64,000 bases of DNA from Ostreococcus lucimarinus. Its lineage: Eukaryota. Of the stretch, positions 1-46,496 are shown piece by piece. Numbering within the stretch: position 1 is the first letter of the stretch; each line of letters opens with the position of its first letter. A program made the translations under genes and the position numbers. Under the pieces are notes generated by a model. It worked only from the letters and a program-made list of their open reading frames with translations. It did no database searches and was not told the DNA's origin. Location of the stretch: assembly GCA_000092065.1 (NCBI GenBank), contig CP000583.1; one strand, given 5' to 3'.

Positions 1-612
1 CGCGTTGGTGAGGACGTTGGAGTGAACCGGGTCCGCAACGTGGGATTGCCAGTTGGCGATCGGGCCTTCTTGGGTGGCGAGCGCTTGGAAGATGCAGCCC
101 AACCACGCGAACATGGACAAGCGGCAGTGCTTGAGCTCCTTGATCTTGAGTTCTTCAAGGTCGCCAGACTCGGCGAGGCCGAGCGGGTCGAAGCGTCCAC
201 CCGGGTTGACGTCACCGACGGTGAGGCCATCATCGAACGGAGAGTCGGAGATACCGGTACGGTACGCTTCCGCGGCGCCGACGAGAACGATCTCGATGAT
301 GAGAACGTTCCAGAAGGACGGGTAGCCAGAGCCTTCCGGCGCGAGCGGGGCGACGGCGCCCGGGAACTTGTCCGCGACGGCGGTGCAGTCATCCGGGGTG
401 CACAAGGTACCCGCGGTGAACCACGGGATGCCGGTGCCGTTTTCGGCGGCCCACGCACCGGTGACGCCAAGCATCGCCCAGCGGCCGTGGATCACTTCAC
501 GCTCGGCGTTCTTTTCGTCGCCGAACGGGATGATCGGGGATTCGCCACCGCCCGGGTAGGTACCGAATTCCGGGTAGATGTCAGCCTTGACCGTCGTGGA
601 GACAGACTTGGC
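1..612 (-). CDS. Lhcp: Lhcp chlorophyll a/b-binding protein, copy A, exon 2. The C-terminal ~10 codons are cut off by the window start.
   Basis: The reverse complement of 1..612 is identical to exon 2 of the plus-strand copy at 1979..2614; ORF-track peptides at 53..325 and 368..559 repeat exactly at 2266..2538 and 2032..2223. The encoded peptide (…AKSVSTTVKADIYPEFGTYPGGGESPIIPFGDEKNAEREVIHGRWAMLG…) has the LHC Chl-binding helix motifs. The acceptor AG lies at complement of 613-614. Confidence 0.8.
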
Positions 613-1086
613 CTGCGATCGAACGAAGTTTATATTCTCCAGTCAGTCTCGTCGTCTCGTGATCGCGCACGCCCATCCGTCGTCGTCCGCCGACGCGCCC
701 GCCGCTCTAAAAAGTCTGTTCCCCCCCCGATCCACGTTTTCACGGTTCACGACTCGTGCCGACCCCCATCCGCGGCGATAAGAGCGAAACCGTATCTCGC
801 GCGCGGCGTCCCGCCCGATCGCCCGCGTCGCGCGCGCGTCGCCCGCGACCGACGCCTCGACCCCCGACGTCGCGCGACGCGCGCGACACATTTCCAGCAT
901 CCACCGCGCGCCGTCCCGCGCCCGTCCGCGCGACACCGCCCGCGCGAGGGCGCCGCGCGCGATCGCCCACCGCGATCGATCGCCCGATCGTTCGTTCGTT
1001 CGTTCGACGCGCGCGCGTCGCGTCCCTCGCGCGCGTCGTCGTCCCGCGCGTCGTCGCGCGTCGCGCGAAGGCTAAAAAATACGCAC

Positions 1087-1152
1087 TTGGATCTTGGTCG
1101 CCTTGAAGGCGGCGACGCGGCCGACGAAGGAGGAAGCGAGAAGGGCAGACAT
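1087..1152 (-). CDS. Lhcp: Lhcp copy A, exon 1 (MSALLASSFVGRVAAFKATKIQ, transit-peptide start)
   Basis: The reverse complement of 1087..1152 equals 1489..1554. ATG is the complement of 1150-1152; the donor GTGCGT follows as complement of 1081-1086; phase 0. Confidence 0.75.
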
Positions 1153-1488
1153 TACGACTGAGTGTGCGTGAATGCCGCGCGCGGCGCGCCACCGGTGGCG
1201 GTCGAGGCGCGCGCGCGGGCGCGGCCTCGCGGCGAACGAGATCTTCCGTGATGGGCGAAATACGGCGTGGAATGCGTGAATATCTCGCGATCGGGGTGTT
1301 TTATGTTTTATGCGTCGCGGCGCGCGCGATCGAGATCGCGATCGACGCGTTCGGGTTCGCGCGTCGCGCGCGATCGATCGTGCGTCGATCGATCGCGCGA
1401 TCGATCGATCGATCGATGGCGCGCGATCGATGGCGCGCGATCTCGCGCGCGCGCGCGAGCGGCATACCTGCACACGCACATTTCTACA
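1153..1488. promoter_or_regulatory. Shared bidirectional promoter / 5'UTR region between two divergently oriented Lhcp genes. It has a dense cluster of CGATCG hexamers and a short tandem gttttat duplication.
   Basis: Only 336 bp separate the two ATGs (1152 minus, 1489 plus). CGATCG occurs more than a dozen times between ~1320 and 1450. Confidence 0.5.
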
Positions 1489-1554
1489 ATGTCTGCCCTT
1501 CTCGCTTCCTCCTTCGTCGGCCGCGTCGCCGCCTTCAAGGCGACCAAGATCCAA
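1489..1554 (+). CDS. Lhcp: Lhcp copy B, exon 1
   Basis: ATG at 1489. Twenty-two codons (MSALLASSFVGRVAAFKATKIQ) are followed by GTGCGT at 1555. Confidence 0.8.
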
Positions 1555-1978
1555 GTGCGTATTTTTTAGCCTTCGCGCGACGCGCGACGACGCGCGGGAC
1601 GACGACGCGCGCGAGGGACGCGATCGCATCGCGCGCCATCGATCGACGGCGTGAGATACGCGACATCGCGCGCGCGGCGCGCATCGCGTCGTCGCGACGC
1701 GGGACGTGCGACGCCGCGAAGGGCGTCGCGGGAAGCGATGTCGATGATTATTTGTGATCGCGACGCGACGCGCGTCGGCGTCGCGACGCGTCGCGACGGG
1801 CGAGCGGGCGCTCGATCGCCGCGGCGATAGGATAACCGCGATACGGATATTTTCTATCTGTTTGTTTGACTGGACGAAGCGCGGGCGCGGGGCGGAGGAC
1901 GCGGGTGATTGGATCGATCGTTCGAGCGAAGAGAGGAGACTGACGAAAGAAACGCGATGTGTTTTACGAAATGAACAG

Positions 1979-2614
1979 GCCAAGTCTGTCTCCACGACGG
2001 TCAAGGCTGACATCTACCCGGAATTCGGTACCTACCCGGGCGGTGGCGAATCCCCGATCATCCCGTTCGGCGACGAAAAGAACGCCGAGCGTGAAGTGAT
2101 CCACGGCCGCTGGGCGATGCTTGGCGTCACCGGTGCGTGGGCCGCCGAAAACGGCACCGGCATCCCGTGGTTCACCGCGGGTACCTTGTGCACCCCGGAT
2201 GACTGCACCGCCGTCGCGGACAAGTTCCCGGGCGCCGTCGCCCCGCTCGCGCCGGAAGGCTCTGGCTACCCGTCCTTCTGGAACGTTCTCATCATCGAGA
2301 TCGTTCTCGTCGGCGCCGCGGAAGCGTACCGTACCGGTATCTCCGACTCTCCGTTCGATGATGGCCTCACCGTCGGTGACGTCAACCCGGGTGGACGCTT
2401 CGACCCGCTCGGCCTCGCCGAGTCTGGCGACCTTGAAGAACTCAAGATCAAGGAGCTCAAGCACTGCCGCTTGTCCATGTTCGCGTGGTTGGGCTGCATC
2501 TTCCAAGCGCTCGCCACCCAAGAAGGCCCGATCGCCAACTGGCAATCCCACGTTGCGGACCCGGTTCACTCCAACGTCCTCACCAACGCGGCCAAGGGCT
2601 TCGGCTTCTACTAA
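1979..2614 (+). CDS. Lhcp: Lhcp copy B, exon 2: prasinophyte-type light-harvesting chlorophyll a/b-binding protein
   Basis: Acceptor cag at 1976-1978. The continuous frame reaches TAA at 2612-2614. The peptide carries EVIHGRWAMLG, GPFDPLGL-like and second-helix ELKHCRLSMFAWLG motifs typical of LHC. Confidence 0.85.
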   Translation, partial: AKSVSTTVKADIYPEFGTYPGGGESPIIPFGDEKNAEREVIHGRWAMLGVTGAWAAENGTGIPWFTAGTLCTPDDCTAVADKFPGAVAPLAPEGSGYPSFWNVLIIEIVLVGAAEAYRTGISDSPFDDGLTVGDVNPGGRFDPLGLAESGDLEELKIKELKHCRLSMFAWLGCIFQALATQEGPIANWQSHVADPVHSNVLTNAAKGFGFY

Positions 2615-2914
2615 GCGGTTCACCGCCTTGGTAGCTTCGTCATAGGGTAGCTTGATCGGCGGCCGTCGACTTCGCGTCTACGGTCACCTCCAAGATTTCT
2701 CTGACAGCGCTGGGAATTCCCGACTGCTTTTGGGGCTTTGTCTCTTCAATAACATTCGTTTTAATGATGCATCTCTCGATGTTTGATTACTCTTCGCCTC
2801 CGCGTCGCCGTCGCCGCGCTCTGGATAGCCCGCAGACGCGCGTCCCGGCATCTTGCCCCACACACGCGCGCGCGCGTTCCCTTCGCCCCCGTGGCCGGAT
2901 CGAACGCGAAGAAC

Positions 2915-4462
2915 ATGGCGACGACGATCGCTTCGCGCGCCGTCGCGGCGACGACGCCCCGCGCGCGCGCGCGCGCGCGAACGAATCCCCGCGCGTCGTC
3001 CACCTCGCGTCGGACCCGCGCGATCGCCGACGCCAACGCCGAGGCGACGGCCGAGGACGCGCGCGAGCTCGCGGCGTGGTTATCCTACGACAAGGGCGTG
3101 GACGCGAGCGGATTAGTGTTCAAAGAGGGCGCGAGAGGCGAGGTGGAGGTGGCCCTGCGCGGAGACGTCGACGCCGGGGCGCGCGTGCTCGCGGTGCCGC
3201 AAGACTGCGCGGTGACGTCCGTGGACGTCGACGCGCACCCGATCGTCAGCGGATTGGCCAAGGGGCGACCAGAGCTCGTCGGGTTGGCGCTGTGGTTGTG
3301 CGCGGAGCGCATCAAGGGTGGAGCGAGCGATTGGGCGCCGTACGTGAAGACGCTCGCGGCGAATCCAGACGCGCCGTTGTTTTGGACCGAGGCGGAAGAT
3401 TTCGCGCTGTTGAAGGGGTCGCCGATCGTGAATGATGCGGTAGAACGCTCGAGGAGCGCGAGGGAGGAATATGCGGCTATCGTGGAGGTCATTAAGGGTG
3501 ATCCCACGGCGTTTCCCGCGGAGGCGTACGAGTTTTTCACCGAGGAGCGCTTCGTGGACGCGCTGGCGACGGTGTGCGCCAAGGCGACTTGGTTACCCAC
3601 GGCATCGTGCTATGCGTTGGTGCCTTTGTTAGACGTCATCACGATTGCTGGATCTCCGGTGCCGGGCGTTTCACCGCCCTCGGCGAAGGATGGAATCGCG
3701 CGGTGCGCTGCGGATTACGACGTCGACAGCGCGTGCGTGGTTTTATCCGCCGTCGTCAAGGCGCCGGCGAACTCGCGAGTCGTACAGTTGGATCCGTTGC
3801 AAAGGAACAACGGTGAGCTGTTCTTGAACACTGGTCGCGTTGATCAGAAGCATCCAGGGGATTATTTGTACATGCGGACCGAGATTCAGCCCTCCGATCG
3901 CTTATTTTCGGCGAAGAAGCAAGTCCTCGAGGGTATGGGTTTCACCGCCGAAAACCAGTACTTTCCGGTGTATGAAGATCGTATGCCGACCCAGTTGTAC
4001 TCTTATCTTCGTTTTGCCCGCGTTCAAGATCCCGGTGAGATGATGGCGGTGTCGTTTGAGGAGGATAAAATCGTTTCGGTGATGAACGAATACGAAATTC
4101 TTCAGCTTCTCATGGGCGATTGTCGAGAGTTAATGTCTGAATACGACACGAATGAGGAAGACGAGCTGAACCTGTTGAAGCTCTCGGACACGATGCGCGT
4201 GCGAGAGATCGAGGCGGCCAAGCTTAGAATGTCCGAGAAGAAGCTCATCGGTTGCACGATGACGGCGGTTCGCAAGCGCTTGGCGCCGATTCGTGGCATC
4301 CCAACCAAGCAAGGCATGGAAGACCCGAACCAGGATCTTTTAGACATTTTCAACGCGATCGAGAGCATTCCAAATAAGCCAAAGGAAATGATGGAAGACT
4401 TCAAGAAGTGGGCGCGTGGGGACTACGAAGACATCCCCAAAGGCGGGGGTGGCTGCGGGTAG
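2915..4462 (+). CDS. SET-domain lysine methyltransferase, Rubisco LSMT / SETD3-like, with an Ala/Arg/Ser-rich N-terminal presequence
   Basis: First ATG in the ORF is at 2915. It has a SET-like core (…LFWTEAEDFALLKGSPI…) and a C-terminal Rubisco-LSMT substrate-binding-like region. Gene model is single-exon. Confidence 0.6.
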   Translation: MATTIASRAVAATTPRARARARTNPRASSTSRRTRAIADANAEATAEDARELAAWLSYDKGVDASGLVFKEGARGEVEVALRGDVDAGARVLAVPQDCAVTSVDVDAHPIVSGLAKGRPELVGLALWLCAERIKGGASDWAPYVKTLAANPDAPLFWTEAEDFALLKGSPIVNDAVERSRSAREEYAAIVEVIKGDPTAFPAEAYEFFTEERFVDALATVCAKATWLPTASCYALVPLLDVITIAGSPVPGVSPPSAKDGIARCAADYDVDSACVVLSAVVKAPANSRVVQLDPLQRNNGELFLNTGRVDQKHPGDYLYMRTEIQPSDRLFSAKKQVLEGMGFTAENQYFPVYEDRMPTQLYSYLRFARVQDPGEMMAVSFEEDKIVSVMNEYEILQLLMGDCRELMSEYDTNEEDELNLLKLSDTMRVREIEAAKLRMSEKKLIGCTMTAVRKRLAPIRGIPTKQGMEDPNQDLLDIFNAIESIPNKPKEMMEDFKKWARGDYEDIPKGGGGCG

Positions 4463-25969: not shown

Positions 25970-28555
25970 CTACGCGCACGTTCCCACGCACGCCGCCGCG
26001 CAGTCCGATTTCCATTCGTACTGACGCTCGTTCGCGTCGCCGACGCACATCCAACCGCCCGCGTTCTCGGAATCACGGAAAAATGCGTGCTCGAGCGCTC
26101 GACCCGCCGTCGGACGCTCGCTCGGATCCCAGGAGAGCAACTTGCGAAGCAGGCGCAGAGTCCAAACAGATTCAAAGCCGACGGAGAGGGGATCGCGCTC
26201 CTTGAAAACCTCCATCAACGCCGTCTCCGTGCAATCCCACGTCAGTAAAGGTGCGACTTGTGTGTTTGGAGGCACTATGCATAGTTCGAGCATCGCGCGC
26301 AGTCGGTAAGCGACCGCGCGAGCTTTTGGATGCACGCCGCGCAATTCTCGCTCGAGCGCCAATCGGGTCGTCTTGCGCGAGATTTGAGAAAACGCCTTGG
26401 GCGAGCCAAGCGCTAAAACTTCCGCCATCATCACGCCGAGCGACCACATGTCGTATTTTGACGTTCGCTCCACCCCACGATCATCACCGAAGAGAACTTC
26501 TGGAGGACTATATTCCGAAGTTTCTTGCGCCATGGACGGGCCGGAGGCTCCGTAAAGTTCCGAGCGACTACGAGCGTCCACGGCACTTCCGAAATCCCCG
26601 AGCCGAGCCTCGACGAAGTCGCCGTCAAGTTTGACGAATACGTTCGCAGGCTTAATGTCTCTGTGTACAATGCCAAATTTGGCGTGACTAACATCCACGG
26701 CGGCGAACACGTGCCTCAAAATTGTCTTCAGCGTTCGACGACCTTTGCGTTGAAGGCGCATGTCTCGCCACCATTCGCTTTGCGTGACAAGTTGCAAACC
26801 TTGCGATCCACCAACGGCTTCGGGGGCGTAAATGAGACGTTCGAGGGACTCGCCTTCGTCTTTGAAGACAAGCCATTGTTCGCTTCCACTCGATGGCGTT
26901 CTCTCAAAGGTGTGTACAAATCTCGCCAAGTGGGGTGACGAGCCGCAGAGCAGCCTTCCGAAGTACACCTCGCGCTCTGCGCTCAATCGTAAATCCGAGC
27001 CCTGATGCAACAGAATACGCTTCAAAATTACCCTGGACGATGCAAACGCATCTGATATTGTGTCAGGAGCGGGTTTACAATCCCATTCGTGCTCCGTCTC
27101 CCGCGACAACTTGCCACGCCACACCTCTCCGAAATGACCTCGAGCGAACGGGCGCTCGCCGGCGGCGAACGCATCTTCCTCGAAATTATCACCACTCGCA
27201 TCGACGATATCGACGTAAGAAGTGATGGCATTTGAGACACTCCCTTTTTCGCTCGTTCCAGGTGCTAACGCTAACGCTGCGAGCGCGCCTTCGATAGCAC
27301 TTTGCTCAAACGTCTTTCCGATGTCAGCCATCGGAAGTTCTTCGTAGTAATCGTCGTACCGGAACGGGATCTCTGCGGGTGAGTGAGGACCGGATGACCA
27401 TGCGATCATTTCCGTGATTTCATAAGCTGAAATACGCGCACCCACTCGGGGGATTTCAGCGACCAGGTCGGAAGGAGTGTGTTGAAGCGCCCCGTGCGCG
27501 ACGCTTTGAATTGGCCGACCCGAGGATAGCGCCCCGAGCGCGACGTTATCGGAGGCCCCAAGGCTAAGCGCACATTTGAGTGCGCGCTCGATTCCACTTC
27601 GCATGCCGCGTGTACTTGCTTCGCTAAACTCTATCGCATCCCAGCTCTCAGCAGCTTCATTTGCTGTGTCGGACCCGGCGTCGCCTCCGAGCGCGATGAC
27701 GGGAACGTTTTCGGCGCGTTCGCAGTCGTGTTTCCCATCGAACACGAACGCGCACGCATCGTCCGCGCGTAGAGCGTCGGTCGTTCCATCGCTTGTTAAT
27801 ATCAATCCCATTTCGTCCCTTTTCCATCGCCTGCGCATGATCTCCGGCGTGGCCACCACGCCAAACGCTTTATGCCTCGCGCCGCCGAGTGCGCGAGTGA
27901 CAAGAAGTTCTCCCCCCACGCGCAGTTTCCCACGCGCGCGCACTATCTTCACTCCTAGCGCATCTAATCGTTTTCTTTCGTTTTCGTTATCTAATCCATG
28001 ATCTTGTGTCAAACGTCGCGCCTTGGCGCGTCCTGACGAATCCGCAAAGCACGCGTACGCCGCGCTATCGCCCGCATGCGCCACCGCGAATCCATCCTCT
28101 CCGCTCGCCGCGAGCACCACCGTCGCCCCACCGCTCGAGCTCGACCGCGCCCAAAATTCGTCCAATTTCGCGATCGTCGTCTCCAGCGCTTTCGCGACGG
28201 CGCGTGACGCCGCCGCGGTCGCGCCGTCGCCGAGCGCGTCTTTGAAAATCTCCGCCGCCGCCAGCGTTGTCGACCTCGACGCCGCACCGCCGTCGTGCCC
28301 GTCGAACACGCCCACGAGATGGAGATGATGAGCACCACCGACGACGCACGCGTCTTCCTGAGCGCGACGGCGGCCTCGCGCGCGCGCGCACGCGCGTTCG
28401 AGTTCGAGCTCTGGGACAGCGGGCGCGTCGAGCGCGCGCAGCGCACCGATGACGAGCGCGATCGCGGCGACGAGCGAAGCGCGGGTGATGAGGAACGGCC
28501 TCAACGGTGCGACCTTCGTCGCCGGCGCGCGCGCCTCCGCGCGCGCGCGCGACAT
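25970..28555 (-). CDS. Fusion protein: N-terminal PP2C-type Ser/Thr phosphatase domain plus C-terminal protein kinase domain; N-terminal hydrophobic segment
   Basis: PP2C motifs GVFDGHDGG, AHAGDS, LTQDH, LILTSDG, GASDNVALGAL. Kinase motifs GHFGEVWRGKL (Gly loop), HRDIKPANVFV (catalytic loop), LGDFGSA (DFG), SKYDMWSLGV. One open frame of 861 aa. Confidence 0.75.
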   Translation of the reverse strand: MSRARAEARAPATKVAPLRPFLITRASLVAAIALVIGALRALDAPAVPELELERACARARGRRRAQEDACVVGGAHHLHLVGVFDGHDGGAASRSTTLAAAEIFKDALGDGATAAASRAVAKALETTIAKLDEFWARSSSSGGATVVLAASGEDGFAVAHAGDSAAYACFADSSGRAKARRLTQDHGLDNENERKRLDALGVKIVRARGKLRVGGELLVTRALGGARHKAFGVVATPEIMRRRWKRDEMGLILTSDGTTDALRADDACAFVFDGKHDCERAENVPVIALGGDAGSDTANEAAESWDAIEFSEASTRGMRSGIERALKCALSLGASDNVALGALSSGRPIQSVAHGALQHTPSDLVAEIPRVGARISAYEITEMIAWSSGPHSPAEIPFRYDDYYEELPMADIGKTFEQSAIEGALAALALAPGTSEKGSVSNAITSYVDIVDASGDNFEEDAFAAGERPFARGHFGEVWRGKLSRETEHEWDCKPAPDTISDAFASSRVILKRILLHQGSDLRLSAEREVYFGRLLCGSSPHLARFVHTFERTPSSGSEQWLVFKDEGESLERLIYAPEAVGGSQGLQLVTQSEWWRDMRLQRKGRRTLKTILRHVFAAVDVSHAKFGIVHRDIKPANVFVKLDGDFVEARLGDFGSAVDARSRSELYGASGPSMAQETSEYSPPEVLFGDDRGVERTSKYDMWSLGVMMAEVLALGSPKAFSQISRKTTRLALERELRGVHPKARAVAYRLRAMLELCIVPPNTQVAPLLTWDCTETALMEVFKERDPLSVGFESVWTLRLLRKLLSWDPSERPTAGRALEHAFFRDSENAGGWMCVGDANERQYEWKSDCAAACVGTCA

Positions 28556-34530: not shown

Positions 34531-35244
34531 CTATGACCAACTTCTCGTCTTCGCGTGCACGCGAGCCACATCCGTCATGTAATCCCCGCTCAATCGAGCG
34601 TACGCCGTGCGATTCGCGCGCTCGATCTCTCGTCGAGCGCGCTCCTCGTCACCATTAATCTCATAAAATAACCCCAAATATAACGCGCTATAAAACTCAT
34701 CGCTCGCGTTCGAGCGTCCGGCTTCGCGCAGGCGCGTCGCCGCCTCTTCCGATCCCTCCGCGAACAGCGCGAAAACGCTCGACATCACCGGTCTCGAATC
34801 CCGACCGGTGATCAACATATTTTCTCTCGCGTACGCGATCCCTTTCTCCGGATCCATCGCCTCCGAGGCGAAGCACCACACGCTCTCCTCCGTATCGTTC
34901 GGGTTCTGCGCCACGTCCAGTCGAAACTGCTTCGCCGCCTCCTCGTACGCCCCCGCGTAGTACAGCGCCAGCCCGCGCTGCCACATGTACGCGCTAAACC
35001 TCTCATCGCTCGCGATGGCGTCGTCGAACGCGTCGATCGCGCCTCTGACGTCGCCTCTGATAAACTCCCTCGCGCCGCGCTTGATCTTTTCGCTCGCCAC
35101 CGATGCGTTCGCTCGCTCCGCGCGCGCGCACGTCGCCACGATCGCCGCCGCGACGCCGCGCAGAGCGTCGCGACGATTCGTTCGTCGTCTCGCGTCGCGC
35201 GTCGCGCACGCACGCGGCGCGCGCGCGCCGCGAGCGGCGGACAT
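34531..35244 (-). CDS. TPR-like repeat protein with a twin-arginine-type presequence (possible thylakoid-lumen targeting)
   Basis: RRTNRRDALRGVAAAIVATCARA, then helical repeats with W/Y/A periodicity (AYMWQRGLALYYAGAYEEAAKQF…). Only weak family assignment. Confidence 0.4.
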   Translation of the reverse strand: MSAARGARAPRACATRDARRRTNRRDALRGVAAAIVATCARAERANASVASEKIKRGAREFIRGDVRGAIDAFDDAIASDERFSAYMWQRGLALYYAGAYEEAAKQFRLDVAQNPNDTEESVWCFASEAMDPEKGIAYARENMLITGRDSRPVMSSVFALFAEGSEEAATRLREAGRSNASDEFYSALYLGLFYEINGDEERARREIERANRTAYARLSGDYMTDVARVHAKTRSWS

Positions 35245-41515: not shown

Positions 41516-44500
41516 CTAAATCGTTTCACCCGTGGCCTTCTCGTATTGCGTCTTGAGAGCGACGACGAGACGCCAATCATCCTTCGTCAATTCTTCACGG
41601 AAGCTTTCCTTCAACATGTCGATCGACTCGCGCGTCATTCTCGATACGAGCTGATCTTTATGATCAAAATGGCGACCGTAAAGTCGCGAAGATTCACTGG
41701 GCGTTCTCGGTTCGATCTTCATCGCCACAGATTGACCGGCAGTTGCCTTCTTCACCTCCTTGTGGTTGAGTTCCATCGAAGCAATCTTACCAATGTCGAT
41801 GTAACCTTGCGATGGGATGCAAATTTGCGTCCCCACGCGAGCGACCCCCTTGACAATGTCAACACCAACGACGATGGGATCGCGCTTGTTGAACACGCAG
41901 TTGGGCATGATTTGCAAGATGCAAGGGAAGTTGACGTGCTGCGACGCGGCTTCACGCTTGTCTGCCTTGACCTTTTCCATGTACGCCGTGAATTGATCAA
42001 ACAAGTGGTAGATGATGTCGGCGGTGAAGATGCGAACGTTGAGCTCTTCGCCCATTGCGTGCGCCTCCTTCGTCACCGGCACGTCAAAAGCCAGAATAGT
42101 AGCATACTCGGGCTTTTTGCGCTCGTGCATGACGCTCGCACCCATGACGTCCCGTTTGTTTACCGGGCCAATGGCGATGCCGGCGACGGGAATTTTGACC
42201 GCGTCAGATTTCAAGAACTCCAACAAGGCTTCCAAAGAACCGAGCGTAGACGCCTGCACGTACACGCCTTCGCCACTCTTATCAACACGAGCAAGCACGC
42301 CCTTCATATCACTTAAAACCTCTTCCCTGAGTTCCATTTCGTCGTCTTCAGGATCGAGCACCAAAAGAGACGTACCTGCGACAGCTTTCTCTAATCCAGT
42401 GGCGACGATCTTGATCCCTTGAGCGCCTTCGATTTCCTTGTGATGAATGTAGCTTCCCTTCACCCGCATCTCTCGCATGGGCTGCGGTGTAAGTAATGCA
42501 CGAATTTGAGTCGTAATCGCCCCCTCTAACCCAGCAACGACGATTGTCTGTCCTTCCTTGAGCTTACCGTTGATGAGAATGACGTCAACGCTCGTACCGA
42601 GACCTTCGATCATCTTCACTTCAAGCACGGTACACTGTACGGCAGGCACGTATTGAATGCGCTCGTTCATGCGATTTTGGCACAAGTCAACAAGCGTTTG
42701 CAAAATGTCCGGCATCCCCTCACCCGTAATAGCAGAGGTTGGGATGATGTTGATGAAAGTACGTGGGTCCGGGTTCTCCCAGTACTTCGCCACGTTCAAA
42801 CCTTGCTCAGCAAACTCGATGACGATCTTGTCGTAACGATCTTGGAACTCGCGTCGAGCGTGATCCTTTTGTAAGGACAAAGTCTCCTGTGTTGGGAAGT
42901 TGGTATTTTCCGTCCAGTCGTACATGCGATCGATTTTGTTGAGCGCAATCACAAAAGGCGTCTTTCGCGATCGAAGCATGTTCAACGATTCTATCGTTTG
43001 CGGCTCTAAGCCGTGCATGATATCAACGACGAGAATGGCGAGATCACAAAGTGACGAACCTCTCGAACGCAAGTTTGTGAAAGACTCGTGTCCTGGGGTA
43101 TCGATAACGAGCAAACCGGGAACTCGCAAGTCCCATTCACCCTTGTTTAGCTGCGCCGTTCGCTCGAGGAGAGACTCCTTGGGAATAAAAGTCGCACCAA
43201 TTTGCTGCGTAATACCGCCAGCTTCTCCGTCTTGGACGTTGGTTCGTCGAATGTTATCCAATATCTTCGTCTTACCGGTATCAACGTGCCCCATGATGCA
43301 TATAATTGGGCAACGAAGCTTGCTTGGACTGCGCTTTGCCTTGGCCAACTCGAAGCGTGCCAAACGCGCAATCTTTGCCGCCTCCATGCGCTCTTCGTGT
43401 TCACGTTGACGGACGTCATCGCTATCCTCGCGGTAATCCGAGCTATCGGAGTACTCAGAGCTGTCGCTGTCGGAATCAGAGTCAGAATCAGAGCCAGAAT
43501 CAGAGCCAGATCCTTCGTCAGATTCTTCGTCAGAGCCCGAAGCGTCAGCAGCTTCCTTGGCTGCGGCGGCCTTTTCCTTGGCTTCCTTGGCCCACGGCTT
43601 TTCAGCCGCAATCTTCGCCTTGATCGCCTTCTCCGCCGCGAATTTGGCCGCAGCCTCAGCCGCTTTCTTCTCCGTCTCGTGACGTTTCTGCTCGGCGGCC
43701 TCTTTCTCCGCCTTTTCCTTAGCCAAGCGCTCCTCCTCTTCTTTCTGACCCGGAAGGATAATCTCCTTGTCGTCCCAGTCTTCCGCTTCCCAGTCATCGG
43801 CAGCGTCGTCATCTTCAGCTTCGGCGGCGAGTCGGGCTTCTTCTTCAGCTTTAGCCTTCGCTTCAGCCTCAGCACGCTCTTGTTGTTGCTTTCGACGCTC
43901 TTCCATCTCTTTCTTCTTTTTGCGATCGTCGTAAACCGGACGTTTCGGCTTGATAACTTCGTCGAGTTTATCTGCGTCAATCCCAGACTTGGCTAACATT
44001 TGCTGGCGCATCGCGGCTAAACGCGCTTGTTCCGCCTTTTGCTTGTTGCTGAGAAGTTTGCCTTCGGCACGGAGGCGCTCCTTCTTCTCCTTCTCTTTTT
44101 GTTTCTTTGCCTCGCGACGCGCTTCCTCCTCTTCTTCTTTTTGTTTCTCAAGACGTTCAGCCTCCTCCGCCGCGGCTCTTGCCTCGGCTTCAGCTTTGGC
44201 TTGAGCCTCTTCCACCTCCTTACGCTTTTGCATTTCTGCTTGAAGGGCGAGAATTCTCGCACTTGGCGCGCCGGCAGACTTTTGCTTCTTCTCCGCCTCT
44301 GCCGCCGCCTTGGCCTTGGCTTCCTTTTCTTTTTGCTTCTTCTTGAGCTTCTTCTTTTGCGACGCCGAAAGCTCTTTGCCATCTTCAAGCGCATCGCCGT
44401 CATCATCATCATCATGATTATTGCCATCGGTAGCAGGCGCCGCATCGGCGGCATCACCGCCAGCTGCGGCTTCCGCGGCTTCGCGCTCGGCTTTCAATCG

Positions 44501-45778
44501 GCGCTTCTTTGCCGCTTTACTCTCGCCAGCCGGCTCTTCTGGCTTGGCCTCGATTTTGATGTCAAGCTCGGCCAAAAGAGCGTCGAGGTCTTCCTCGTCG
44601 TCGGCCGCTTGCTTACCACCTTTTTTCTTTTTCTTCTTGTCCTTCTTCGAGCCACCAGTTTCGTTGGCGACGAGTTCGGGTTCGGGTTCGGGTTCGGGTT
44701 CGGGCGTCTTTTCCTTCTTCGTCGTCCCGGGCGCTTTCAAAGGCACATCATCGCCGATGGAAAAAGCAGACTTATCGAGCTCGTACACGCCATCCGCGCT
44801 ATCGGCCCAACCCATCTCCACCGCGCTGAGAATCATACCTTCACTCATGACGCCGCGCAACGGCGTCTTGTCGATGACTTGGCCGCTGGCGGGGATTTTC
44901 ACGCCGACGCCTGCAAAAATCACCAACAAACCTTTTCTGGCGTTGGCACCACCGCACACGCACCGTTTCGGTTCGTCGCCGCCGAAATCGACGGTGCAAA
45001 CTTGCAGACGATCCGCCATCGGGTGCTTGCTGCATTCGATGATCTTACCCACGACGAGTTCGGGTTCGGCGACGAGCTTTTTCTTTTTCTTCTTTTTGAG
45101 ATCAATCGCGACTTCCACCGCCGCGGCTTCCTCGTCGGCATCCATGAGATCGGCAAAGCTTCCCTTCTTCTTCTTCTTTTTGTCTTTCGTGTCCGCGGTG
45201 CGAGACTCCGAGGCTTCTTCGTCGTCCTCCGCGTCCTCGTCTTCGTCGTCCGCCATCAAAGCCGCGAAGCCGCCCTTTTTGGATTTCTTCTTTTTATCCT
45301 TCTTCGGCTTGACATCCGCCTCCATCTCCTCTTCCTCGTCGTCATCATCGCCACCACCCATCAACGGATCGTTCACGTCGTCGTCCGACCCCATCAACGC
45401 CGCGAAACCACCTTTTTTGGATTTCTTCTTCTCCTTCTTCGGCTTCGTCGCCGCCGCCGCCGCGCGCACCTCCTCCTCCGACGCGTCGTCCGCGTCATCC
45501 GCGTCGTCATCCGACCCCATCAACGCCGCGAAACCTCCCTTTTTAGACGTTTTCTTCCCCTTCCTCGGTTTCACCGCGCGCGTCTCCCCCTCGTCCGCCT
45601 CCTCTTCGTCCGCCTTCTTCGCCGCCGCCGCCAGAGGGTCCAAATCCTCGTCCGAGTCCTCCCCTCGTCCTCTCCCGCCCCGCCCGCCCTTGCCCTTCGC
45701 CGCCTTTCGCGCCTTTTTCATCTCCGTCTTCGACATCGCTCTCGCGCCGTCGTCCGCGTCTTTCGCGCCGTCGTCGCG

Positions 45779-45816
<38 letters not shown>

Positions 45817-45898
45817 CCGAGGGATCGACCCCGTCGTCGTCGTCGCTCGAATCGTCCCCTCGCTTGCCCTTGCGCCCGGCTCGCTTGCCCTTCGCCAT
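41516..45898 (-). CDS. EIF5B: Translation initiation factor eIF5B (IF2 family GTPase) with a long K/E/D-rich N-terminal region that contains an EMAP/Myf-type tRNA-binding OB domain
   Basis: G domain IICIMGHVDTGKT, DTPGHESF, NKIDR; domains II-IV are collinear with eIF5B to the C-terminus. A Myf-like block LVVGKIIECSKHPMADRLQVCTVDFGGDEPKRCVCGGAN…RGVMSEGMILSAVE sits in the same open frame. ATG (MAKGKRAGRKGKRG…) at complement of 45896-45898. Confidence 0.85.
45145..45550. repeat. Four tandem peptide repeats (K-rich-GGFAALMGSDDD-acidic) inside the eIF5B N-terminal region
   Basis: SKKGGFAALMGSDDD occurs three times plus a degenerate GSFADLMDAD copy in the translated minus frame. Confidence 0.7.
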
Positions 45899-46034
45899 CG
45901 CGCGGCGCGCGGGAACGTTCTCTCTCGCGCGCCGTCCGTCGTCGGCGCGCGCTCGCGCGTCGCGCGCGCGTCGCGGTGTGTCCATCGCGCCGTCGCATCT
46001 TTTAAACGTCGAGACATCGCGACGCGCGCGCGCG

Positions 46035-46496
46035 ATGCGCGCCGACGCGCGCGCGCTCGGCGGCGACGACGACGCGCGCGACGTCGCGCGCGACGTCGAC
46101 GACGGCGACGCGACGCGCGCGATGGCCGACGCCGACGCCGACGCCGACGACGCGCGCGAGGACGCGACGACGACGACGACGACGACGCCGCCGACGAACG
46201 AACGACGCGACGCGCGCGAGCGCGCCGGCGACGTCGCGCGCGCGTCGCTCGCGATCGCGCTGCTCGCGGTCGCCCTCGCGAGGCTGCGACGGTGGGCGAG
46301 GGGCGACGGCGACGCGCGCGGCGGCGCGCCGGGACGCGTCAGCAGGCGCTTCGCCGCGCGGCACAGGAAGTGTAATCGATGCGGCGCGCGCGGGTCGGCG
46401 GTCAAGGTGAAGTGCGAGCGGTGTAAAAGGTGCTGGTACTGCTCGCAGACGTGCAAGAAAGCGGCGTGGGCGCTGGAAATTTGCGAGTGTTGTTGA
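46035..46496 (+). CDS. Hypothetical small protein with one TM helix and a C-terminal Cys-rich (MYND-like) zinc-finger motif
   Basis: ATG at 46035. …SLAIALLAVALARL… then CNRCGARGSAVKVKCERCKRCWYCSQTCKKAAW…CECC. Low-complexity Ala/Arg/Asp-rich middle. Confidence 0.3.
   Translation: MRADARALGGDDDARDVARDVDDGDATRAMADADADADDAREDATTTTTTTPPTNERRDARERAGDVARASLAIALLAVALARLRRWARGDGDARGGAPGRVSRRFAARHRKCNRCGARGSAVKVKCERCKRCWYCSQTCKKAAWALEICECC

Follow-up and report, generated by a model that had tools for sequence, protein, structure and literature searches.

Two copies of Lhcp2 in Ostreococcus lucimarinus, a very small marine green alga, lie head-to-head on opposite strands, are divergently transcribed and encode the same 233-aa protein. 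Comparison with other Mamiellales makes it very probable that they are an old divergent pair, the exons of which are kept identical by gene conversion together with selection. This exon-only identity points to concerted evolution by gene conversion, an implication that the first-pass annotation missed. The locus is an ordinary, already annotated gene pair rather than a new kind of element, and the pattern of exon identity is textbook concerted evolution that points to no new mechanism.

Lhcp2 gene models and the interrupted inverted repeat

Chlorophyll-ligand motifs of the form E-x-x-H/N-x-R in helices 1 and 3 define the LHC family, and the translation carries EVIHGR at residues 60-65 and ELKHCR at residues 181-186 in these two helices. 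It matches PF00504, the chlorophyll a/b-binding domain, with 88.1 bits against a gathering cut-off of 22.3 (E 1.2e-24). Its best structure match is 7yca_P, O. tauri Lhcp2 (522.9 bits), with 228 of 233 residues identical and 5 different. The scores of 7yca_Q (Lhcp1; 406.7 bits) and of plant and Chlamydomonas LHCII chains (approximately 90 bits) place the protein closer to Lhcp2; chains P and Q of 7yca are Lhcp2 and Lhcp1, respectively (PMC10097422). On these sequence matches, both arms are Lhcp2, the major prasinophyte-specific chlorophyll a/b antenna protein. Additionally, the protein exactly matches O. lucimarinus CCE9901 proteins ABO95040.1, ABO95332.1, ABO96997.1 and ABO99981.1, although for the CCE9901 reference copies outside the window (the whole stretch of 64,000 nt that was analysed) identity is established for the protein only. 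An exact-protein look-up returned metatranscriptome contigs only. Public databases also hold artificial 286-aa "intron plus exon 2" proteins, which were made by prokaryotic gene callers.

Each gene consists of a 66-nt exon 1, one phase-0 intron and a 636-nt exon 2 (Table 1). The final 8 codons of copy A with the stop lie just past the window edge, and their completion is seen in contigs L019-L024. Together with the PF00504 and 7yca_P matches, these GT..AG models bear out two earlier proposals, namely that two Lhcp genes occupy opposite strands and that they are transcribed divergently, gene A on the minus strand and gene B on the plus strand. In the six long metagenome contigs that span the pair, the genes run in the order Cupin - MFS_5 - Lhcp2(-) - Lhcp2(+) - Rubis-subs-bind - helicase - DUF92. 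An Rfam scan of the whole window at the gathering threshold found no RNA genes in the introns or the spacer.

Table 1. Coordinates of the Lhcp2 pair, its repeat blocks and its spacer elements in the window
Feature	Position	Strand	Remarks
Long block, left arm	1..615	.	Partner 1976-2590, 615 nt, 100% (repeat search)
Copy A exon 2	1..612	-	Cut by window edge; translation same as copy B; tblastn match 621-1
Copy A intron	613..1086	-	474 nt, GT..AG, phase 0 after codon 22
Short block, left arm	1018..1153	.	Exon 1, 69 nt of intron and 1 nt upstream of ATG
Copy A exon 1	1087..1152	-	22 codons, transit peptide start
Intergenic spacer, divergent	1153..1488	.	336 nt between ATGs; both promoters inside
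Proximal motif CATTCACGCACAC, copy A	1162..1174	-	10-22 nt upstream of ATG; candidate core-promoter or transcription-start element
Simple repeat (GATC)n / (CG)n	1357..1458	.	In spacer; self-complementary, length varies among wild contigs
Proximal motif CATACCTGCACAC, copy B	1463..1475	+	14-26 nt upstream of ATG
Short block, right arm	1488..1623	.	Partner 1018-1153, 136 nt, 100%
Copy B exon 1	1489..1554	+	Spliced transcript contigs L013-L017 join 1554 to 1979
Copy B intron	1555..1978	+	424 nt, GT..AG; first 69 nt and last 3 nt same as copy A
Long block, right arm	1976..2625	.	Mirrored in window to 2590; to 2625 in wild contigs
Copy B exon 2	1979..2614	+	Stop TAA 2612-2614
Copy B 3' UTR	2615..2828	+	At least 214 nt; transcript contigs L013, L014, L015 and L017 reach 2780-2828

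The first-pass annotation had described a continuous palindrome of approximately 2.6 kb with near-identical arms and start codons 336 bp apart. The distance is exactly 336 nt (1153-1488), and both blocks are 100% identical when the window is compared with its own reverse strand; an inverted repeat that is perfect over 615 nt goes far beyond chance. The palindrome is not continuous, however, but interrupted, with a gap of 334 nt between the 136-nt arms and of 1360 nt between the 615-nt arms. Most of the spacer is unrelated between its two sides, and so are the intron interiors at 616-1017 (402 nt) and 1624-1975 (352 nt), which give CG-rich low-complexity matches only. Of the mirror said to take in the exons and approximately 80 nt of intron, the exon part holds, whereas the intron part shrinks to 69 nt at the 5' end and 3 nt at the 3' end. 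Likewise, the suspected extension past the window edge exists but amounts to 35 nt only, that is, 24 nt of coding sequence with the stop followed by 11 nt of 3' flank, as read from wild contigs at least 99% identical to the window. In line with this, the 3' UTRs of A and B have in common only 11 nt after the stop (2615-2625 in copy B). On the other hand, the entire copy B intron is the same as the intron of a dispersed copy C in contig L025. An introner-like repeat was considered for the intron interiors and rejected, as comparison with each other and with the rest of the window gave only short CG-rich low-complexity matches.

The pair is real and not an assembly artefact. It is covered from flank to unique flank, always in one orientation, by six contigs (56-213 kb) of four ENA metagenome assemblies, which represent four samples. 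That assembly had falsely doubled or mirrored one Lhcp2 gene could be suspected from contig L009, which stops at window position 2596, from L041-L043, which break within exon 2, and from the chimeric L051 and L053, in which the upstream flank of copy C is joined to the downstream flank of a copy D. Short-read contigs thus do break or chimerise here, as had been anticipated. Yet the copies differ in intron, 5' UTR and 3' flank, and the reference genomes of O. tauri and Micromonas commoda have the genes arranged in the same way. Together with the six long contigs, these differences leave an artefact with next to no probability, and this reading is effectively refuted.

Age of the pair and exchange between its exons

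In O. tauri, the chromosome 3 pair (CEF97268.1 / CEF97269.1, CAID01000003.2) occupies the same orthologous locus, head-to-head and with the same intron position. Its spacer measures 342 nt, compared with 336 nt in O. lucimarinus, and its flanks match, with Rubis-subs-bind on one side and MFS_5, Cupin and RPL5 on the other. Over 682 nt, the exon-2 arms match at 100%, and the exon-1 block is 94% identical over 123 nt with an identical CDS part, whereas that of O. lucimarinus is 100% identical. Identity at the 3' end of the intron covers 35 nt in O. tauri versus 3 nt in O. lucimarinus, and the introns and spacer centre are unalignable between the two species.

In M. commoda, the LHCP2 multigene family comprises LHCP2.1-2.7, of which LHCP2.1 and LHCP2.2 are indistinguishable by RNA-seq reads (PMC5344333). 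This genome resembles O. lucimarinus in having several near-identical Lhcp2 genes, but holds two head-to-head pairs instead of one, both with the two-block inverted repeat; one adjoins MFS_5 and the other alpha-amylase. Spacer length is greater, at 581 and 615 nt, exon 1 measures 63 nt, and arm identity is 99%, compared with 100% in O. lucimarinus. Additionally, a solo Lhcp2 copy beside a BRCT gene is common to Ostreococcus-like contigs and Bathycoccus. The flanking genes are homologous between genomes (tblastn). Judged from gene order, the pair is an old inverted duplication that predates the Ostreococcus/Micromonas split and has kept the same MFS_5 neighbour.

A recent, lineage-specific inverted duplication would explain the identity of the copies by youth, with no need for conversion, and it would fit both the 100% identity over 615 and 136 nt and the identity of B and C including the whole intron, which may reflect either a recent duplication or a long conversion tract. 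The A/B intron interiors and spacer halves are unalignable, however, as they could not be in a young duplicate. The orthologous position, beside MFS_5 in Micromonas and with MFS_5 and Rubis-subs-bind on either side in O. tauri, speaks against it as well, and so does the presence in both Ostreococcus species of two identical copies that are 26 nt apart between species. We consider such a recent origin very unlikely.

Within the old pair, paralogs in one genome are closer to each other than orthologs are between genomes. Specifically, CDS differences within a genome number 0/699 among O. lucimarinus A, B and C, 0/699 in O. tauri and 1-3/693 in M. commoda, compared with 26/699 between O. lucimarinus and O. 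tauri (19 synonymous codons) and 105-109/693 between either Ostreococcus and Micromonas. The duplication preceded speciation, and the paralogs sit in conserved syntenic positions. The edges of identity are sharp, since it runs through 69 nt of intron and through 11 nt of 3' UTR, after which the sequences become unalignable. In some wild contigs, synonymous differences cluster in a tract-like patch at exon-2 144-237 that is partly in the O. tauri state; these are short-read contigs, in which the patch is not phasable by copy of origin. We infer concerted evolution by gene conversion of old paralogs, the dispersed copies included, whose identity rests partly on short-read metagenome contigs that chimerise at this repeat.

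Purifying and codon-usage selection alone, with no exchange of sequence, could be held to keep the copies identical, as Lhcp2 is a very abundant protein and in the six wild haplotype contigs 8,280 exon nt contain 0 substitutions, compared with 102 in approximately 9,200 non-coding nt (roughly 1%). Against this, all 19 synonymous codon differences between O. lucimarinus and O. tauri are common to both paralogs within each species, and synonymous variants do occur in wild contigs. Moreover, identity enters the intron (69 nt in O. lucimarinus; 35 nt at the 3' end in O. tauri), beyond the reach of codon selection. Selection as the sole cause is therefore highly improbable. Codon-usage selection does add to the invariance of the exons, to an extent not quantitatively separable from conversion.

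Taken together, we propose that A, B and at least one (probably two to three) further dispersed Lhcp2 copies, with exons identical including synonymous sites, would be homogenised by repeated DNA-level gene conversion, which strong selection on this very highly expressed gene, both purifying and on codon usage, may reinforce. Conversion tracts would end in the intron interiors, spacer and flanks, which are no longer homologous, and this would produce two sharp-edged blocks of 100% identity.

The divergent spacer and the stability of the repeat

With ATGs 336 nt apart, the two genes lie within the <1 kb between transcription starts that defines a divergent pair. Conservation of the spacer, both between copies and between species, is confined to approximately 35-45 nt beside each ATG, and the spacer centre is the most variable part of the locus and the most polymorphic segment in wild contigs. 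Apart from approximately 35 nt beside each ATG and the self-complementary GATC/CG repeat, the spacer has no symmetry about its centre. The CATTCC-YGCACAC motif has just two matches in the 64-kb window, which are mirror images of each other, and it recurs ahead of Lhcp2 copies in both O. tauri and M. commoda. Support for the motif lies in its position and in this recurrence across species, as its frequency within the window is not significant by itself (at least two matches in 39 of 100 shuffles). We infer a promoter role for this motif, and the two genes may be co-regulated.

Because each gene has its own mirrored proximal motif and the spacer centre is variable, a pair of mirrored core promoters is likelier than a single shared element. 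In Ostreococcus, each copy would keep its own proximal element 10-30 nt upstream of ATG, and the two elements would face apart across a variable, simple-repeat-rich spacer of approximately 290 nt. Co-regulation from one shared promoter is plausible on the geometry, which fits a bidirectional promoter. No light or clock elements are common to the spacers of O. lucimarinus, O. tauri and Micromonas; isolated elements are one AATATCT core (O. lucimarinus), one G-box (O. tauri) and one AAAAATCT (a Micromonas spacer).

The sequence directly ahead of ATG is copy-specific, copy A ending in ...CACTCAGTCGTA-ATG and copy B in ...CGCACATTTCTACA-ATG. Transcript contigs lose homology 9-25 nt upstream of ATG, which suggests a 5' UTR of approximately 9-25 nt for B-type copies. 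Among the spliced wild transcript contigs are some with the 3' UTR of copy B and some with that of dispersed copy C, and the copy A 3' UTR is in none of the six transcript contigs read. A metagenome scan with the copy A 3' UTR junction gave four genomic contigs, none spliced.

The first-pass annotation had further expected cruciforms and recombinational instability. The inverted repeat might indeed destabilise the locus or act as a structural element, with a cruciform or hairpin that affects regulation, replication or recombination. When 1018-1623 is folded as single-stranded DNA, a 136-bp stem forms (-337 kcal/mol, z = -28), and short-read contigs L003, L007 and L044 join intron B to the copy A flank, which is what an arm-to-arm crossover inverting the centre would give. 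However, palindromes that form cruciforms have near-perfect arms with no or a very short spacer, and cruciform extrusion and palindrome fragility drop steeply with spacers beyond tens of bases, whereas the perfect arms here are separated by 334 and 1360 nt. The architecture also persists across genera, having arisen before the Ostreococcus/Micromonas split, and the reference and all six long contigs are in one orientation. The discordant short-read joins are explained more simply as chimeras like L051 and L053. Furthermore, no transcript is expected across both arms, since all flanking genes are oriented outwards. Cruciforms are unlikely to form, and a structural role for the repeat or an unstable locus has a very low probability. 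The expectation of instability is thus not sustained.

A wider proposal, which we regard as unlikely, is that Mamiellales Lhcp2 represents unusually long-lived, exon-bounded concerted evolution, in which the pair is a self-correcting palindrome, and a donor hub for the dispersed copies, with a flipping centre. If so, paralogs in positions older than the Ostreococcus/Micromonas/Bathycoccus split would still be homogenised to 0-3 nt across chromosomes; the 1.36-kb centre might invert through arm-to-arm crossover at no cost, given the symmetry of the unit, and the contigs joining intron B to the copy A flank would be real isomers, not chimeras. When the spacers of O. lucimarinus and O. tauri are compared, a flipped centre is favoured by global alignment and a syntenic one by local alignment. 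One O. tauri intron matches both O. lucimarinus introns alike (z 7.0 and 7.9), probably through base composition.

Relation to known systems and significance

In human Y-chromosome palindromes and plastid inverted repeats, arm-to-arm gene conversion keeps inverted duplicates identical. The Lhcp2 pair resembles them in its identical inverted duplicates and proposed intrachromosomal conversion; however, their arms are identical over the full length, including non-coding DNA, and span tens of kb to Mb, whereas identity in Lhcp2 is restricted to exon-centred blocks and copies on other chromosomes are involved. Histone pairs (H2A-H2B, H3-H4) are divergent, with bidirectional promoters that have defined shared elements, and encode two different partner proteins. 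They are likewise head-to-head, highly expressed and a few hundred bp apart, but the Lhcp2 pair is the same gene twice, each copy seemingly with its own mirrored core element. In 1986, Leutwiler et al. reportedly described three linked Arabidopsis Lhcb1 (CAB) genes with identical mature proteins, two of them divergently transcribed. Such plant clusters are also partly divergent groups of major-antenna genes with concerted coding-sequence evolution, yet they belong to another LHC subfamily (Lhcb1, not Lhcp), lack an intron and are more widely spaced. A literature search that left aside Six et al. (2005, Mol Biol Evol) and Derelle et al. (2006) found neither the head-to-head layout of Lhcp2 nor its concerted evolution described.

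One of the most abundant groups of marine picophytoplankton has Lhcp2 as its dominant antenna protein. RNA-seq reads can be assigned to an Lhcp2 copy through the UTRs only, short-read and metagenome assemblies break or chimerise at the pair, and a knock-out or edit of Lhcp2 must hit several identical genes. The pair offers a clean example of concerted evolution in an old, positionally conserved gene family of a very compact genome.

Architecture and assembly of the Lhcp2 pair

Translation with GT..AG splice sites yields two divergent genes, copy A and copy B, and a repeat search of the window returns two mirrored blocks. The 233-aa product bears a chlorophyll a/b-binding domain (PF00504, E 1.2e-24) and is identical at 228 of 233 residues to chain P of PDB 7yca, which is Lhcp2 in the O. 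tauri PSI-LHCI-Lhcp supercomplex (Ishii et al., PMC10097422); chain Q (Lhcp1) scores clearly below chain P. Given the perfect blocks, gene models, domain and Lhcp2 match, the head-to-head Lhcp pair of the first-pass annotation is real and rightly named, including its near-identical arms and its 336-bp distance between start codons.

Features of the window (window positions)
Feature	Position	Strand	Details
Long mirrored block	1-615 / 1976-2590		615 nt, 100%
Short mirrored block	1018-1153 / 1488-1623		136 nt, 100%
Gene A exon 1, intron, exon 2	1152-1087, 1086-613, 612-1	-	intron 474 nt
Gene B exon 1, intron, exon 2	1489-1554, 1555-1978, 1979-2614	+	intron 424 nt
ATG-to-ATG gap	1153-1488		exactly 336 nt
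CATTCC-YGCACAC	1162-1174	-	
CATTCC-YGCACAC	1463-1475	+	
Antisense ORF	22-1161	+	379 aa
Exon-2 variant cluster	2122-2215		exon-2 positions 144-237
Rubis-subs-bind gene	2915-4462	+	515 aa, PF09273
Kinase ORF	25970-28555		
ARAGORN "tRNA-???"	35122-35215	-	four-base anticodon
Large ORF	41516-46456	-	1646 aa
Tandem repeat	45376-45604		126 nt
CG-rich arrays	46018-46254		

Mirroring does continue into the 5' end of the intron, but over 69 nt rather than the ~80 nt first proposed, with 3 nt more at the 3' end. The interiors of the two introns (402 nt for A and 352 nt for B) and the spacer match only in short CG-rich stretches of low complexity. Because these parts are unrelated, the supposed 2.6-kb palindrome is an interrupted inverted repeat, of whose span the mirrored blocks make up ~60%. 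The window edge falls 8 codons short of the copy A stop. In six wild contigs (L019-L024), copy A ends 24 nt outside the window and A/B identity stops 11 nt past the stop codon, so the repeat continues past the edge, as anticipated, and the full structure measures ~2,660 bp. The ORF antisense across exon 2, intron and exon 1 of copy A is almost certainly spurious, a by-product of GC-rich DNA.

A misassembly could in principle produce such a pair. However, all six of these contigs (56-213 kb, from four ENA metagenome assemblies) carry both copies, not one, between unique flanks, in the order Cupin - MFS_5 - Lhcp2(-) - Lhcp2(+) - Rubis-subs-bind - helicase - DUF92 and with the A-type intron on the MFS_5 side; their "contig_N" names and sizes suggest a long-read assembler. 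The pair is therefore not an artefact. The assembly problems predicted for the repeat do occur in short-read data: contig L009 stops within exon 2 at window position 2596, L041-L043 break there likewise, and L051 and L053 are mis-joined at the repeat. These two JGI contigs (11.3 and 10.4 kb) read RibD_C - ANAPC8 - Lhcp2 - alpha-amylase, running from the sequence upstream of one dispersed copy (the BRCT-flanked one) into that downstream of a different dispersed copy. They are probably chimeras across an identical gene; were they genuine, they would amount to a translocation via ectopic crossover. Additionally, a 286-aa "protein" (P0002, P0003, P0155; loci L001-L008 and L019-L028), in which 75 in-frame intron B codons are fused to exon 2, stems from prokaryotic gene callers on metagenomes and is a database artefact, not a genuine isoform; P0155 alone is listed for >100 contigs.

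Elsewhere in the window, the kinase ORF shares a 90%-identity cluster with O. lucimarinus ABO95341.1; together with the exact Lhcp2 protein matches, this places the window in the nuclear genome of O. lucimarinus. The 1646-aa ORF, probably a low-complexity repetitive protein, lies in a strand-biased region (especially 44000-46300; GC skew -0.23 and AT skew -0.44 at 44-46 kb) that holds the tandem repeat and CG-rich arrays. Rfam at gathering score found no tRNA in the whole window, and the ARAGORN call likely reflects either a false positive or a tRNA with an intron.

Homogeneity of the Lhcp2 copies

O. lucimarinus has at least four Lhcp2 genes with identical products, the exact 233-aa sequence standing under four CCE9901 accessions (ABO95040.1, ABO95332.1, ABO96997.1 and ABO99981.1). 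We compared spliced coding sequences codon by codon, taking copy A from contig L020 and the dispersed copy C from L025. Within species, copies A, B and C differ at 0/699 nt, the two O. tauri copies at 0/699 and the four M. commoda copies, on two chromosomes, at 1-3/693. Between species, O. lucimarinus and O. tauri differ at 26/699 nt (19 synonymous and 3 non-synonymous codons), and either Ostreococcus differs from Micromonas at 105-109/693.

Recent duplication cannot explain this identity, because the introns are unalignable and the genomic position of the pair is conserved. Purifying or codon selection would be in keeping with the six wild contigs, which show 0 substitutions in 8,280 nt of exon versus 102 in ~9,200 nt of non-coding sequence. 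Selection alone, however, cannot produce the pattern: each between-species difference is common to all paralogs of a species, synonymous variants do arise in wild contigs, and A/B identity reaches into the intron and 3' UTR. The best-supported mechanism, judging from these comparisons, is repeated gene conversion, which would homogenise the copies at the DNA level in tracts bounded by lost homology in introns, spacer and flanks, with strong purifying and codon selection superimposed.

The synonymous variants include a cluster in exon 2, with 2-5 within 94 nt in L001, L026, L028, L012 and L013; two match the O. tauri state, and the contigs mostly end in the BRCT flank. This cluster may reflect a conversion mosaic particular to a paralog or a strain. 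Copy C equals copy B across both exons and the whole intron, which suggests either a long tract or more recent copying between the two loci, with the caveat that L025 is a short-read contig.

Transcripts and putative promoters

Six metatranscriptome contigs encode exactly the 233-aa protein, spliced 1554|1979; four carry the copy B 3' UTR, reaching 2780-2828, and one that of copy C. Their similarity to the genome ends 9-25 nt upstream of the ATG, which suggests that the 5' UTR is very short. In three contigs (L013-L015), unrelated AT-rich sequence is joined 9-15 nt before the Lhcp2 ATG, with hardly any variation in position; these fusions look like assembly chimeras at the true mRNA 5' end.

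Just upstream of the point where similarity ends lies the motif CATTCC-YGCACAC, present at copies A, B and C of O. lucimarinus, at the O. tauri pair and, slightly varied, at all four M. commoda copies. Its only two occurrences in the 64-kb window mirror each other, a count not significant by itself. The spacer centre is the most polymorphic stretch of the locus, has a length-variable GATC/CG simple repeat and is unalignable between species. Two mirrored core promoters would fit this layout better than one shared bidirectional element, and co-regulation of copies A and B is plausible. PMC2850359 cites a footprinting study that likewise reported few bidirectional regulatory elements in Ostreococcus.

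Conservation and stability of the arrangement

On O. tauri chromosome 3, a head-to-head Lhcp2 pair has the same neighbours, a 342-nt spacer and 682-nt exon-2 arms that are 100% identical. In Micromonas commoda RCC299 there are two pairs of this kind, one adjoining MFS_5 and the other alpha-amylase; both show the same two-block repeat, with a long block of 653-713 nt (99%) and a short one of 89 nt (90-96%). Solo copies in Ostreococcus-like contigs lie between ANAPC8 and a BRCT gene or adjoin alpha-amylase, and the ANAPC8-Lhcp2-BRCT context is found again in eight Bathycoccus assemblies. Since these contexts recur and the flanking genes are homologous by tblastn (MFS_5, 64% between O. lucimarinus and O. 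tauri and 43% to Micromonas; alpha-amylase, 62%; BRCT, 31-40%), the paralogs already occupied these positions before the genera diverged.

Copy B is followed directly by the gene for a protein with a Rubisco LSMT substrate-binding domain, an adjacency kept in O. tauri but not in Micromonas. In another Ostreococcus-like lineage (L049, JGI Ga0494229_02097, 75 kb), the MFS_5 - Lhcp2 pair - Rubis-subs-bind locus has two exon 2 copies ~2.3 kb apart; the Rubis-side copy is without the B-type intron ORF, and therefore introns and spacer turn over fast while exons stay fixed.

The inner block, when folded as single-stranded DNA, forms a 136-bp stem. Cruciform extrusion is improbable with perfect arms separated by 334 and 1360 nt, so the cruciforms first envisaged are not expected, and the arrangement is stable across genera. 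Because the neighbouring genes all face away from the centre, no transcript is expected across both arms. Three short-read contigs (L003, L007 and L044) connect intron B to the flank of copy A, as an inversion of the centre by crossing over between the arms would do; these are more simply read as chimeras, and orientation comparisons between species contradicted one another.

The literature searched, which did not include Six et al. 2005, the main paper on this family, contained no explicit account of the head-to-head arrangement. Taken together, the window holds a conserved and already annotated pair of divergently transcribed Lhcp2 genes, evolving in concert with their paralogs. The locus is of a known kind, nothing new in type, and serves well for teaching and as a practical caution for read mapping and assembly.
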